Below, in pieces: positions 26,178 through 45,301 of a stretch of 64,000 bases of DNA. The position numbers and the translations under genes were made by a program. Position 1 is the first letter of the stretch, and every line of letters starts with the position of its first letter. Under the pieces are notes generated by a model. It saw only the letters and a program-made list of their open reading frames with translations, did not search any database and was not told where the DNA came from. Origin of the DNA: an uncultured Candidatus Saccharibacteria bacterium (lineage in GTDB: Bacteria; Patescibacteriota; Minisyncoccia; Phycocordibacterales; UBA9973); contig CAZQSY010000004.1 of the NCBI GenBank assembly GCA_964596395.1, positions 9,008 through 73,007 of the forward strand, read 5' to 3'.

Positions 26178-26276
26178 GGGCCTATTGTTCTGTGGTAGAA
26201 TAGCGGTCTCCACCCCGTCGCTCGCGAGCGACAGGGTCCAAGACCGTTGCCGGAAGTTCGATTCCTCCACGGCCCA
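26178..26276 (+). pseudogene. Degenerate tRNA-Trp-like sequence with a 24-nt hairpin inserted in the anticodon loop, directly abutting the GIY-YIG ORF start
   Basis: D-arm gttc/tgtggta/gaat, anticodon stem gcggt + loop ctcca(hairpin ccccgtcgctcgcgagcgacaggg)..accgt, T-arm ggaag-TTCGATT-cctcc. Acceptor pairs only 5/7. Ends 2 nt before the ATG at 26279. Confidence 0.5.
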
Positions 26277-26278
26277 CA

Positions 26279-26538
26279 TGTTTTATGTTTACGTTTTGAA
26301 GAGTAAGAAAGACAATAAGCTGTATTTCGGGTATACTGCTGACCTGAAAAAACGTTTATCTGAACACAAGAGAGGGAACGTAGAAAATACTAGCCATAGA
26401 TTGCCCGTTGAGCTTGTTTATTACGAATCTTATAGAAATATAGATGATGCGAAGGAGCGGGAAAAGAGTTTCAAAAATAGCGGTTCTGTGTATAATGGAT
26501 TGGTAAAAAGAATTAAGAGAAGTATGATGGGAGCTTAG
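26279..26538 (+). CDS. Small GIY-YIG nuclease (COG2827/UPF0213-type URI-domain protein)
   Basis: MFYVYVLKS...KLYFGYTADLKKRLSEHKRG matches the GIY-YIG core. Paralogous to 44802..45059. The TAG stop lies inside the 5' end of tRNA-Trp. Confidence 0.75.
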
Positions 26539-26602
26539 TTAAGTGGTATAACTGCGGTCTCCAAAACCGCGGTCAAGGGTCCGATTCCCTTAGCTCCCGC
26601 CA
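26529..26602 (+). tRNA. tRNA-Trp (anticodon CCA), CCA encoded
   Basis: Acceptor gggagct/agctccc, D-arm gtta-agtggta-taac, anticodon stem gcggt/accgc with loop cTCCAaa, T-arm aaggg/ccctt, discriminator g then cca. Overlaps the last 10 nt of the GIY-YIG ORF. Confidence 0.8.
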
Positions 26603-26690
26603 GAGACATTTAGGTCTCCACCCCGTCGTTCGCGAACGACGGGGTCCAAAACCGCGGTCAAGGGTCCGATTCCCTCATCGCCCGCTAGAT
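26603..26690 (+). pseudogene. Partial duplicate of the tRNA-Trp 3' portion carrying the same anticodon-loop hairpin
   Basis: aggtctcca + hairpin ccccgtcgttcgcgaacgacgggg + tccaaaaccgcggtcaagggtccgattccct... matches the tRNA-Trp 3' half with altered acceptor. No 5' half present. Confidence 0.5.
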
Positions 26691-42770: not shown

Positions 42771-43970
42771 ATGAAAAAGATTTACACGTTAGGCATAGAT
42801 ACTTCCTGCGACGACACTTCGGTGGCGGTTTTAGAGAACGACAAGGTACTCGCGAATGTGGTTTCTTCGCAAATTGACGTGCATAAAGAATGGGGCGGGG
42901 TGGTGCCGAACCTAGCGCGCCGGGAACACGAGAGATTAATTGGCGGGTGTATTGAGCTCGCTCTAAAGCGCGCGGGTTTTTTGCAATCGCCTCTGCGGCT
43001 GCATGCTTTTGCTCGGGTCCTCGGGTCGGCCGCACATGAAGTTTTGAATGGTGCGGCCTCAACCAGACCAGCTCGCAAAAGCATGCTGCCGTTTCGGCTA
43101 GGAAGTACGCCTGCGACGAGTTTCGGTGTGTTAGTTAAAAAATTAGACGCCATAGCAGTGACGCATGGCCCGGGGCTCGCACCTGCGCTTGAAGTGGGCG
43201 TGGCCTGGGCAAAAAGAATCGCCTTGGAAAATAATTTGCTTCTTATTGCCGTGAATCATATGGAAGGCCACACGCTTTCGGTATTTTTGAAAAATAAAAA
43301 CGGGAAAAATTATTCGGGGCTGAAGCAGGCAAAGTTTCCTTTTCTCGCGCTGAACGTTTCGGGTGGGCATACAGAACTCGCGTGGGTAGAGAGGTTGGGA
43401 GAATATAAAATTCTGGGGCAGACGCTGGATGACGCTGCCGGCGAATGCTTTGACAAGGTGGCGCGGATGCTTGATTTGGGATACCCGGGCGGGGAGCTGA
43501 TTTCTAAATTCGCTGAAGGCGCTAACCGGGATAAATATCCTCTGCCTCGGCCGATGCTCTGGAGCAAAGATTATAATTTTAGTTTTTCCGGCCTCAAGAC
43601 CGCTTGCCTGTATAATACGAACAAATTGAAAGAAAAACTCGGCAAAGATTTCGCCAAAATTATTCCCGATTACTGCGCTTCCGTGCAGGAAGCGATTGTT
43701 GACTGCCTAGTCATAAAAACCGCCAAAGCTGTAAAAGAATTCAAGCCGAAAATGCTCGTCTTGGGCGGGGGAGTCGCCGCGAACTCGCGCCTGCGCGCGA
43801 GAATCCGCAAAGAGGCGAAAAATTTGGGTGTACCGGTGTATTTTCCCGATAAGAAATTTACTTCCGACAACGCGGCCATGATAGCGCTCGCCGGCTATCA
43901 CAAATTTCTCCGTGGAGAATTCTCCGACCCGAAAAGATTAGAGCGCGTGCCGTCACTTAGATTGGGGTAG
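42771..43970 (+). CDS. tsaD: tRNA N6-adenosine threonylcarbamoyltransferase TsaD (Kae1/Gcp) with in-frame palindromic-element insertion
   Basis: GIDTSCDDTSVAV, HMEGH and GGVAAN motifs. There are ~45 extra residues (LQSPLRLHAFARVLGSAAHEVLNGAASTRPARKSMLPFRLGSTPATSF) between the first helix and GPGL, where homologs have about 8. Confidence 0.85.
   Translation: MKKIYTLGIDTSCDDTSVAVLENDKVLANVVSSQIDVHKEWGGVVPNLARREHERLIGGCIELALKRAGFLQSPLRLHAFARVLGSAAHEVLNGAASTRPARKSMLPFRLGSTPATSFGVLVKKLDAIAVTHGPGLAPALEVGVAWAKRIALENNLLLIAVNHMEGHTLSVFLKNKNGKNYSGLKQAKFPFLALNVSGGHTELAWVERLGEYKILGQTLDDAAGECFDKVARMLDLGYPGGELISKFAEGANRDKYPLPRPMLWSKDYNFSFSGLKTACLYNTNKLKEKLGKDFAKIIPDYCASVQEAIVDCLVIKTAKAVKEFKPKMLVLGGGVAANSRLRARIRKEAKNLGVPVYFPDKKFTSDNAAMIALAGYHKFLRGEFSDPKRLERVPSLRLG
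42995..43091 (+). repeat. Family-B palindromic element copy inserted in frame within tsaD
   Basis: Termini gcggctgcatgcttttgc ... gcaaaagcatgctgccg are retained. The interior differs from the intergenic copy by a ~14-nt indel. Confidence 0.75.
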
Positions 43971-44664: not shown

Positions 44665-44715
44665 GATTTTAATTGTATCAAATTTGTGCTATATTTTCTC
44701 TGTGTTTTGTGGTAT

Positions 44716-44790
44716 TGGGAGATCGCCTGCCTGCGCAGGCAGGTCTAACGGTAGTCACCTCATCGGCGACCCGCCGAAAAGGCGGGGACA
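44716..44790 (+). pseudogene. tRNA 5' fragment (acceptor 5' strand + D-arm) interrupted by a family-C palindrome and followed by a 36-nt double-hairpin element
   Basis: tgggagatcg[cctgcctgcgcaggcagg]tctaacggtag parallels the tRNA-Gln start tgggagatcgtctaatggtag. It is followed by tcacctcatcggcgacccgccgaaaaggcggggaca, which is repeated at 45178-45213. Confidence 0.5.
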
Positions 44791-44801
44791 AAGATTAATC
44801 C

Positions 44802-45059
44802 ATGTATTATACTTACATATTACAAAGTTTAAAAAACGAACGAATGTATGTTGGAAGTACAGATGATTTAAAAAGAAGAGTTTCTGAGCACAATTCAGGT
44901 ATAGGTGGCTTGTATACCAAAAACAATCGACCCTTTAAGTTAATATACTACGAAGCGTACATTGAGAAAAAAGACGCAAGTCGGGCAGAAAAGTTTTACA
45001 AAACAGGATACGGTAGAGAAGTTTTGAATGGTAAATTAGAGGATTATTTGAAAAAATGA
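44802..45059 (+). CDS. Small GIY-YIG nuclease (COG2827/UPF0213-type URI-domain protein)
   Basis: MYYTYILQSLKNERMYVGSTDDLKRRVSEHN matches the GIY-YIG core. Paralog of 26279..26538. Ends 17 nt before tRNA-Gln. Confidence 0.75.
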   Translation: MYYTYILQSLKNERMYVGSTDDLKRRVSEHNSGIGGLYTKNNRPFKLIYYEAYIEKKDASRAEKFYKTGYGREVLNGKLEDYLKK

Positions 45060-45075
45060 TGTTCGCGAGCAGTGC

Positions 45076-45146
45076 TGGGAGATCGTCTAATGGTAGGACT
45101 CCTCCCTTTGAAGGAGGCTATCTTGGTTCGAATCCAAGTCTCCCAG
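45076..45146 (+). tRNA. tRNA-Gln (anticodon TTG) embedded in a 14-bp perfect extension of the acceptor helix
   Basis: Acceptor tgggaga/tctccca, D-arm gtct-aatggta-ggac, anticodon stem cctcc/ggagg with loop cTTTGaa, T-arm cttgg-TTCGAAT-ccaag. Flanks ttcgcgagcagtgc (45062-75) and gcactgctcgcgaa (45146-59) are exact reverse complements. Confidence 0.8.
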
Positions 45147-45173
45147 CACTGCTCGCGAATTAAAAATTTTTAA

Positions 45174-45262
45174 GTGGTAGTCGCCTCATCGGCGACCCGC
45201 CGAAAAGGCGGGGACAGTGGCCTTTGAAGCCATTAATTTTGGTTCGAATCCAAATCTCCCAG
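45174..45262 (+). pseudogene. tRNA 3' fragment (D-loop remnant + 36-nt element + anticodon arm TTG + T-arm + acceptor 3' strand)
   Basis: gtggtag + tcgcctcatcggcgacccgccgaaaaggcggggaca + gtggc-cTTTGaa-gccat + tttgg-TTCGAAT-ccaaa + tctccca g. The 5' acceptor strand and D-stem are absent here but present in the 44716-44790 fragment. Confidence 0.5.
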
Positions 45263-45301
45263 CCCTGGGAGTAAGTCGCGGGAAAATGAAATATTTTTTA
45301 T

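Follow-up and report, generated by a model that had tools for sequence, protein, structure and literature searches.

Among the systems described so far, the leader–trailer stems of ribosomal RNA (rRNA) offer a precedent in which a long flanking duplex encloses the RNA and gives RNase III its entry before trimming (PMC10250234); intervening sequences of 23S rRNA are removed by RNase III as well (PMC11270868). The present work concerns a related arrangement around a transfer RNA (tRNA) in a 64,000-nucleotide stretch of DNA, hereafter the window, from an uncultured Candidatus Saccharibacteria bacterium (GenBank assembly GCA_964596395.1, contig CAZQSY010000004.1, positions 9,008 to 73,007 of the forward strand). 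In this window, the flanks of an intact tRNA-Gln(UUG) gene extend its acceptor stem into a long helix, referred to below as the clamp, and this tRNA lies, together with an open reading frame (ORF) for a small GIY-YIG nuclease, inside a second, split tRNA-Gln gene. As in rRNA processing stems, the flanks of a mature structured RNA pair into a long enclosing duplex whose pairing covaries and whose sequence is not kept. Unlike those stems, however, the clamp encloses a single tRNA, consists of only 14 bp plus the acceptor stem and belongs to a presumably mobile cassette rather than to a housekeeping operon, and RNase III cleavage is in this case a prediction.

Further parallels are provided by elements associated with tRNA genes. 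SegB of phage T4 is a free-standing GIY-YIG homing endonuclease that is encoded in a tRNA cluster and co-inherited with adjacent tRNA sequence (PMC2330249). The window locus likewise places a GIY-YIG gene among tRNA genes, but its ORF encodes an 85-residue catalytic domain only, is UPF0213/SLX1-like and sits inside a split tRNA gene next to a whole, clamped replacement tRNA. At the Caldiarchaeum tRNA-Thr locus, a mobile element in the tRNA gene gives a displaced fragment beside an intact copy (PMC3293823). A tRNA fragment beside an intact copy is thus shared with integrative elements that target tRNA genes, whereas the lack of a recombinase, the position in the D-loop rather than at the 3' end, the carriage of a complete tRNA and the hairpin-containing direct repeats at both junctions set the present locus apart. 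Archaeal split and permuted tRNA genes, in turn, combine complementary flanks with a bulge–helix–bulge motif (PMC3978253). The likeness lies in a helix outside the mature tRNA that would organise the processing of a disrupted tRNA gene; in the window, by contrast, the helix is continuous and free of a bulge–helix–bulge, the host is bacterial, and an intact tRNA is enclosed instead of two halves being joined. The window also encodes what we take, from its translation, to be a Sua5 protein with a TsaE-type P-loop segment, and TsaE is not known from outside bacteria. Finally, in the work of Paquin, Laforest and Lang on Allomyces mitochondria, insertion of a GIY-YIG ORF into atp6 reportedly brings a replacement gene segment, with GC-rich double-hairpin elements nearby. 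That case shares with ours a nuclease ORF accompanied by a foreign copy of part of the disrupted gene and double hairpins associated with mobile ORFs, but it concerns an organellar protein-coding gene and has no RNA clamp.

A GIY-YIG cassette with a clamped replacement tRNA in a split tRNA gene was not found described in the literature searched, the coverage of which was incomplete, so this amounts to absence of evidence only. The reading favoured here, to which a probability of roughly 0.55 can be attached, is that the helix serves as an RNA clamp and processing stem of a replacement tRNA-Gln nested in a split host tRNA-Gln gene, and that it would have to be opened before RNase P acts, with RNase III as the likeliest agent by analogy with rRNA.

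A leader–trailer helix enclosing tRNA-Gln

The clamp and the tRNA that it encloses comprise the following features:

45062–45075, plus strand: leader arm of the clamp helix, starting 2 nt past the ORF stop (inverted repeat and covariation)
45076–45146, plus strand: intact cargo ("inner") tRNA-Gln(UUG), CCA not encoded, discriminator G73 at 45146 (ARAGORN; Rfam, 63 bits)
45146–45159, plus strand: trailer arm of the clamp helix, its first base being the discriminator G73 (inverted repeat and covariation)

The tRNA-Gln(UUG) was called at 45076–45146/7 both by ARAGORN (anticodon ttg) and by the Rfam model RF00005, at 63 bits against a gathering score of 29. Around it, a repeat finder returned two arms of 21 nt each (45062–45082 and 45139–45159), 100% complementary and 56 nt apart. 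These 21 pairs consist of the 7-bp acceptor stem and 14 leader–trailer pairs (45062–45075 with 45146–45159), the 14-nt leader ttcgcgagcagtgc being the exact reverse complement of the 14-nt trailer gcactgctcgcgaa. The original prediction, made from the sequence alone, had described exactly complementary 14-nt flanks stacked on the acceptor stem without a discriminator bulge, and both points are borne out by the repeat finder and by direct comparison: G73 opens the 3' arm and pairs with C-1 (45075), leaving no bulge and a helix continuous with the acceptor stem. Folding of positions 45050–45170, proposed at the same time as a check, yields a structure at −60.5 kcal/mol, compared with −29.1 ± 3.8 kcal/mol for shuffled sequences (z = −8.2; 0 of 200 shuffles as good), and the chance of 14 perfect flank pairs is about 4^-14 per tRNA. 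The window holds four tRNA genes (Gln, Trp, Arg and Leu), and flank complementarity is absent from the other three. The complementarity around tRNA-Gln is thus well outside what chance would give.

Scanning with the nuclease ORF covered 159 related loci, 79 from genomes and 80 from metagenomes, at 40–86% protein identity (designated by L and a number where they need to be told apart). The named genome loci belong mostly to assemblies of Patescibacteria, or candidate phyla radiation (CPR), and L001, from a Paceibacterota assembly, comes closest at 86% protein identity. The same leader–trailer helix, built from different sequences, recurs in about half of the distinct loci; the arms vary freely from locus to locus and only their pairing is kept. 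The extension measures 10–20 bp in 21 of 22 related loci, the remaining one, L032, being scored 0 in this count owing to its shifted register.

Covariation was assessed in an ungapped alignment of 20 distinct loci, in which the two acceptor strands were separated by a constant linker, with 16 bases of leader before the 5' strand and 16 bases of trailer after the 3' strand. Paired cells amounted to 95%, as against 71% in shuffles and 41–49% with slid partners, although these loci had been picked for at least 9 of 14 Watson–Crick pairs, a choice that raises the paired fraction while leaving the variety of pair types unaffected; 18 of the 21 pairs show changes on both sides. The clamp helix is therefore real, conserved and selected. 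In a fixed register of 14 positions across 22 loci, selected on Watson–Crick count alone, 255 Watson–Crick pairs, 25 G:U, 6 A:C and 22 other combinations were counted (p = 0.0009). Because G:U outnumbers A:C by 25 to 6, it is one strand, in the tRNA sense, that folds. Most simply this strand is the transcript, and a role as duplex or cruciform DNA is unlikely. Of the two possibilities raised in the original prediction, that of an RNase III-type substrate is thereby the better supported as far as an RNA-level duplex is concerned (covariation in at least 20 loci, and G:U in excess of A:C), the cleavage itself remaining predicted only.

Two loci depart from the uninterrupted form in a manner that makes sense for an RNA. 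L032 and L007 encode CCA, and in both the stem is set back from the tRNA by an unpaired ACCA or TCCA facing a 4-nt bulge, an arrangement that leaves the RNase P site and the 3' CCA end free.

A nuclease cassette within a split host tRNA-Gln gene

The main context of the helix had been overlooked in the original prediction: the cargo tRNA and the neighbouring ORF form a cassette inside a second, split tRNA-Gln gene, which is made up of the following parts:

44716–44754, plus strand: 5' fragment of the disrupted host ("outer") tRNA-Gln(UUG), positions 1–21, with the acceptor 5' strand, the D-stem 5' strand and the D-loop as far as GGTAG (repeat TGGGAGATCG and ARAGORN reconstruction; same layout in related loci)
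44726–44743, unstranded: 18-nt perfect palindrome CCTGCCTGCGCAGGCAGG within the D-arm of the outer fragment (sole copy in the window)
44750–44790, plus strand: left 41-nt repeat, composed of GGTAG (D-loop), the 32-nt GC double hairpin HP1 at 44755–44786 and GACA (D-stem 3' strand) (direct repeat)
44802–45059, plus strand: ORF of the 85-residue single-domain GIY-YIG nuclease, UPF0213/SLX1-like (Pfam PF01541)
45176–45216, plus strand: right 41-nt repeat, composed of GGTAG, the double hairpin HP2 at 45181–45212 and GACA (direct repeat; hairpin motif)
45213–45262, plus strand: 3' part of the outer tRNA-Gln, positions 22–73, with the D-stem 3' strand, the anticodon arm (UUG), the T arm, the acceptor 3' strand TCTCCCA at 45255–45261 and G73 at 45262 (81% repeat, sub-threshold Rfam match and reconstruction)

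Several independent searches delineate this second gene. A repeat search located the tRNA start TGGGAGATCG twice, at 44716 and 45076, and a 47-nt stretch of the 3' half of the inner tRNA recurs at 45221–45267 with 81% identity. The direct repeat GGTAGTCRCCTCATCGGCGACCCGCCGAAAAGGCGGGGACA is present in two copies (44750–44790 and 45176–45216) that are 98% identical. When 44716–44790 was joined to the sequence from 45217 onward, with the 18-nt palindrome and the 32-nt double hairpin removed, ARAGORN called a second tRNA-Gln(ttg); the outer 3' part also gave a below-threshold Rfam tRNA match (45199–45254, model positions 10–63, 23.7 bits). The insertion point thus lies between D-loop position 21 and D-stem position 22 of the outer tRNA-Gln, and the locus reads, in order, host tRNA-Gln positions 1–21, double hairpin, GACA, ORF, leader arm, intact tRNA-Gln, trailer arm, GGTAG, double hairpin and host positions 22–73. 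The ORF and the clamped tRNA-Gln accordingly form a compact insert that interrupts the host's own tRNA-Gln gene in its D-loop. What remains of the host gene is two decaying halves, and no tRNA-Gln at the locus is intact except that of the cargo. The palindrome CCTGCCTGCGCAGGCAGG, the removal of which was needed for the reconstruction, is a sign of decay in the outer copy; extra inserts of this kind, such as the 18-nt palindrome in the window and a 21-nt insert in the anticodon loop of the outer copy in L001, are as expected of pseudogenes. Immediately downstream, at 45255–45271, the outer acceptor 3' strand is followed by its own complement (CTCCCAG CC CTGGGAG), which may be a hairpin or the remnant of a further tRNA-Gln 5' end.

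Comparison with related loci separates the foreign from the resident parts. Between the window and L001, positions 22–73 of the inner tRNA are 98% identical and the outer 3' parts, which differ in their acceptor stems, only 61%, and the upstream flanks are unrelated. In L001, L005 and L104, moreover, the two outer acceptor strands, 5' and 3', complement one another and are unlike those of the inner tRNA, which identifies the outer pieces as two halves of one resident gene and makes the inner tRNA the foreign part. In L001, which is the nearest relative, the cargo tRNA thus travels with the ORF, whereas the host halves differ.

Regarding the nuclease, PF01541 covers residues 1–72 of the ORF product (E = 3.3e-18; 66.2 bits against a cut-off of 22.6), and among solved structures it comes closest to BH0048 and EF2693, both UPF0213 proteins, with SLX1 after them. 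Homing enzymes of the I-TevI and Seg type are defined by a catalytic domain linked to a C-terminal DNA-binding domain. Assignment to the I-TevI or T4 Seg type was rejected, since the catalytic domain fills residues 1–72 of 85 and no DNA-binding domain is present; the NCBIfam model for group I intron endonucleases scored 28.4, against a cut-off of 56. The cassette nonetheless appears to behave like a homing cassette with cargo, although its nuclease is not placed in the I-TevI/Seg family. The cassette holds the 85-residue ORF alone, its neighbours encoding one VTT-domain protein and two proteins without a family match. With phage carriage in mind, relatives of the ORF were looked for in a viral contig collection and were absent from it. 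More distant homologues of the ORF occur shortly downstream of tRNA genes for Ser, Glu, Asp, Val, Pro and Asn in L045–L077 (Bacteroidota, Alphaproteobacteria, Fibrobacterota and others), which suggests that the whole small GIY-YIG family is tied to tRNA genes.

Other classes of element were also considered for the insert and set aside. A group I intron is contradicted by the lack of any intron family match at the gathering threshold or at E up to 5 and by a position in the D-loop instead of the anticodon loop, and a ribozyme or other RNA family for the insert or its hairpins by the lack of any Rfam match beyond tRNA. An archaeal-type bulge–helix–bulge intron or split tRNA does not agree with the uninterrupted helix. 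An inverted-repeat transposon or miniature inverted-repeat transposable element is not supported either, as the flanks, GATG and TTAA, are not a duplication and the arm sequences vary between loci, and an integrase-type element would call for a tyrosine or serine recombinase, none of which is adjacent, the neighbours being the three proteins named above.

Across the survey, the helix follows the architecture of the locus rather than the identity of the tRNA. There are 65 tRNAs that follow a homologous ORF within 110 nt, and 57 of them are tRNA-Gln; a leader–trailer duplex of −12 kcal/mol or better accompanies 35 of these 65, compared with 6 of 63 other tRNAs from the same loci. At least three of the six exceptions are themselves nested cargo tRNAs (L061 Asp, L007 Thr and L126 Pro), in which an intact tRNA lies between fragments of a second copy; the clamped tRNA-Pro of L126 is upstream of the ORF, and the clamped nested tRNAs of L061 and L007 have no adjacent nuclease ORF. 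Two architectures can be distinguished. In the nested one, the clamped cargo tRNA lacks an encoded CCA in 19 of 23 helix loci, and an outer 3' remnant follows in 9 of 19, whereas among loci without a helix CCA is encoded in 14 of 25 and a remnant follows in 2 of 23. In the simple one, a 5' tRNA fragment with hairpins and the ORF precede a resident tRNA, which often encodes CCA and has no helix. Because the helix is found in nested loci and is absent from resident tRNAs after the ORF, it is a property of cargo tRNAs, and neither of tRNA-Gln generally nor of every tRNA that follows the ORF. This comparison, which the original prediction had called for, gave a divided answer: resident tRNA-Gln genes do lack the helix, as its refuting condition foresaw, but the helix is not thereby incidental, for cargo tRNAs keep it.

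Nesting was also observed in other forms. At L061 (4480–4910), two 5' and two 3' tRNA-Asp fragments surround an intact tRNA-Asp whose 13-bp clamp is perfect, with no nuclease ORF within the nest, and the outermost tRNA-Asp copy has a 13-bp leader–trailer helix of its own (aaaccactctgt with gcagagtggttt), giving a Russian-doll arrangement. The window itself contains a second nested locus at 26178–26685. A decayed tRNA-Trp-like copy (26178–26276) with a 24-nt hairpin in its anticodon loop (26213–26236) is followed there by a second GIY-YIG ORF (26278–26538), 43% identical to the first and with its stop codon inside the following tRNA, then by an intact tRNA-Trp (26529–26602) that encodes CCA and has no clamp, and lastly by a 3' tRNA-Trp fragment (26613–26685).

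Proposed maturation of the nested tRNA and alternative explanations

The proposed mechanism operates on the transcript. The 14 leader–trailer pairs would stack on the 7-bp acceptor stem and make the cargo tRNA a self-contained folding unit, and the clamp would thereby insulate it from the host halves, which the transcript also contains and whose near-identical strands could otherwise pair with its acceptor strands. Partition-function folds of 44700–45285 give the inner acceptor stem a probability of 1.00 with the native flanks and a mean of 0.57 when both flanks are shuffled, with mispairing to the outer 3' strand reaching 1.0; the same in silico insulation is strong in the window and L104 and moderate in L001, L082 and L014.

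Such a clamp must presumably be removed again. In Escherichia coli, RNase P becomes less efficient once the leader prolongs the acceptor stem by two or more pairs, which the enzyme must unwind (PMC9433436). Since leader pairing up to the cleavage site inhibits RNase P, a stem of 14 pairs would need prior cutting or opening. By analogy with rRNA leader–trailer stems, RNase III is the most likely agent to cut or open the 21-bp duplex first; with 21 bp, or 26 bp if the T stem stacks, the duplex suits this enzyme and provides about two turns of continuous double-stranded RNA. Thereafter RNase P, 3' trimming after G73 and CCA addition would complete the tRNA. The stem may in addition be coupled to the nuclease gene. 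The stop codon of the ORF touches the leader arm or runs into it (45057–45075 in the window; median gap 0 nt, and −12 to +12 nt in 21 of 22 loci), because of which a terminating ribosome would need to open the clamp stem, and the stem would also set, and probably limit, the 3' end of the nuclease message.

Several observations weigh against this interpretation. The G:U excess is equally compatible with a folded sense-strand DNA, and the covariation percentages carry the selection of loci stated above. The insulation effect is locus-dependent and is absent in L005, where inner and outer acceptor stems differ, and the nested tRNA-Trp cargo in the same window does without a clamp, which is hence not obligatory for every nested tRNA. 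Genes for RNase III, RNase P and RNase Z are absent from the 64-kb window, and tblastn with E. coli Rnc gave no match, the rest of the genome not being covered. Furthermore, a promoter scan revealed nothing convincing upstream of 44716, and co-transcription of the outer fragment, the ORF and the tRNA is an assumption.

Were the arms to act in DNA instead, they would fold as a single-stranded DNA hairpin or a cruciform recognised by the SLX1-like nuclease or a host recombination enzyme, and serve as a cassette boundary or copying aid. Recognition of a DNA structure is plausible in view of the nearest solved relatives, which are structure-specific nucleases (SLX1) and UPF0213 proteins without a DNA-binding domain; the helix does sit between the ORF and the right-hand hairpin repeat, and G:T is the most tolerated mismatch in a folded DNA strand too. 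A cruciform or duplex role, however, predicts G:T and A:C in equal numbers, whereas 25 and 6 were observed, and clamped tRNAs persist in nested loci with no nuclease ORF nearby (L061, L007); on both counts the recombination or recognition site for the GIY-YIG module that the original prediction had offered as an alternative is disfavoured. Poorly conserved arm sequences in which pairing alone is kept, the absence of a target-site duplication around the arms, and stems that in L032 and L007 start past the unpaired ACCA or TCCA and the 4-nt bulge, sparing the RNase P site and the CCA end, point in the same direction, and we consider a DNA-level element rather unlikely. A similarly low probability is given to control of nuclease expression, in which the stem would end or throttle the ORF message, either by blocking the ribosome near the stop codon or through RNase III or RNase P cleavage. 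The close abutment of stop codon and leader arm favours it, and homing-type nucleases are usually kept at low expression. The tRNA would then be a processing handle, as mascRNA is for MALAT1, whose 3'-end maturation is reported to be promoted by a tRNA-like leader–trailer interaction (PMC8457004). Yet the stem is missing where a resident tRNA comes after the ORF, although the spacing there is just as tight, clamps occur on nested tRNAs that have no ORF, and in L126 the clamped tRNA precedes the ORF. Such control can coexist with the clamp and processing role.

That the helix is a functionless by-product of a recent insertion, for instance the scar of a palindromic repair event, is very improbable. 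Perfect palindromes of 18 and 24 nt do occur as inserts in neighbouring tRNA fragments, and a perfect helix in the window could mean that it is young; but across 20 loci pairing is maintained in helices of very different sequence, 18 of the 21 pairs having changed on both sides, and decay without selection predicts equal G:U and A:C together with falling complementarity. An intrinsic transcription terminator or cassette insulator has even less to commend it: the stem in the window is strong and is followed by TTAAAAATTTTT, but its loop would be the 57-nt body of the tRNA, a terminator scan called nothing at the stem, and related loci have no T-run after the trailer arm. The preferred reading of the helix continues to be that of an RNA clamp and processing stem of the replacement tRNA.

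Hairpin repeats, cassette movement and implications

The double hairpins that border the cassette appear to be specific to it. The motif occurs at only two places in the window (44755–44786 and 45181–45212), both at this locus, and its matches in 728 kb of related loci lie almost exclusively beside GIY-YIG ORFs, for which reason a genome-wide repeat was rejected. Among 24 variants, 97.7% of cells are paired and 5 of 11 pairs show double, compensatory changes; a single long hairpin was likewise discarded, variants such as L015 and L013 supporting two separate hairpins. In related loci, the trailer arm is followed within 0–24 nt by (G)GTAG and the hairpins. A tRNA with a hairpin insert alone was not encountered among 161 sequences.

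Further features of these repeats were noted. In the window copies and 36 variants, the two loops, TCATC and GAAGA or GAAAA, are near reverse complements, so that the element reads much the same on either strand. The second hairpin of the motif ends 7–28 nt before the ORF start and contains GAGG or GGCGGGG, which could be a sequestered ribosome-binding site. The palindrome CCTGCCTGCGCAGGCAGG recurs in the outer fragment of L002 (about 2910–2930), 2 nt further 3' than in the window, and another, CCCCGTCGTTCGCGAACGACGGGG (window 26621–26644), with TCCA on both sides, occupies the anticodon loop of the pseudo-tRNA-Trp piece. Perfect GC-rich palindromes in pseudo-tRNA pieces could represent a small mobile palindrome or a repair footprint.

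An empty site was not recovered: exact-protein look-ups of both neighbouring genes returned the same genome only, with contigs broken inside the hairpin repeats. In an independent assembly of the same genome (Logan contigs from SRR15237813), L160 (1–30) and L161 (1–40) break exactly within the 41-nt repeat, at its left and its right copy, and such cassettes are likely to be lost or fragmented in short-read assemblies. As for the movement of the cassette, break-repair homing with the tRNA halves as homology arms and recombination at the hairpin repeats are both possibilities.

Elsewhere in the window, the tsaD ORF (42771–43970) contains an in-frame, GC-rich insert of about 150 nt (42960–43130) with a 17-nt inverted repeat (42996–43012 and 43075–43091), around which the Pfam TsaD match is split. 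Translations of antisense ORFs suggest a related copy of this insert a few hundred bases upstream.

More broadly, and tentatively, the locus might represent an undescribed class of mobile element, in which an SLX1-like GIY-YIG cassette bounded by double-hairpin repeats inserts into the D-loop of essential tRNA genes and leaves the host dependent on the replacement tRNA, the clamp being an obligatory adaptation for maturing inside another tRNA gene. If this were true, re-invasion of cargo tRNAs would lead to nested Russian-doll tRNA loci such as L061. Loci of this type are probably under-reported, because the outer halves escape tRNA-finding programs and assemblies break off at the 41-nt repeats.

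Altogether, the findings suggest that an essential tRNA is expressible from inside another, broken tRNA gene by means of an rRNA-style leader–trailer stem on a single tRNA, and they point to a widespread CPR cassette that joins a minimal UPF0213/SLX1-like GIY-YIG nuclease to tRNA genes. If the mechanism holds, it would provide a testable bacterial model for the splitting and nesting of tRNA genes, and would suggest how a selfish nuclease gene ensures that it is kept, since it brings the sole functional copy of the gene that it destroys.

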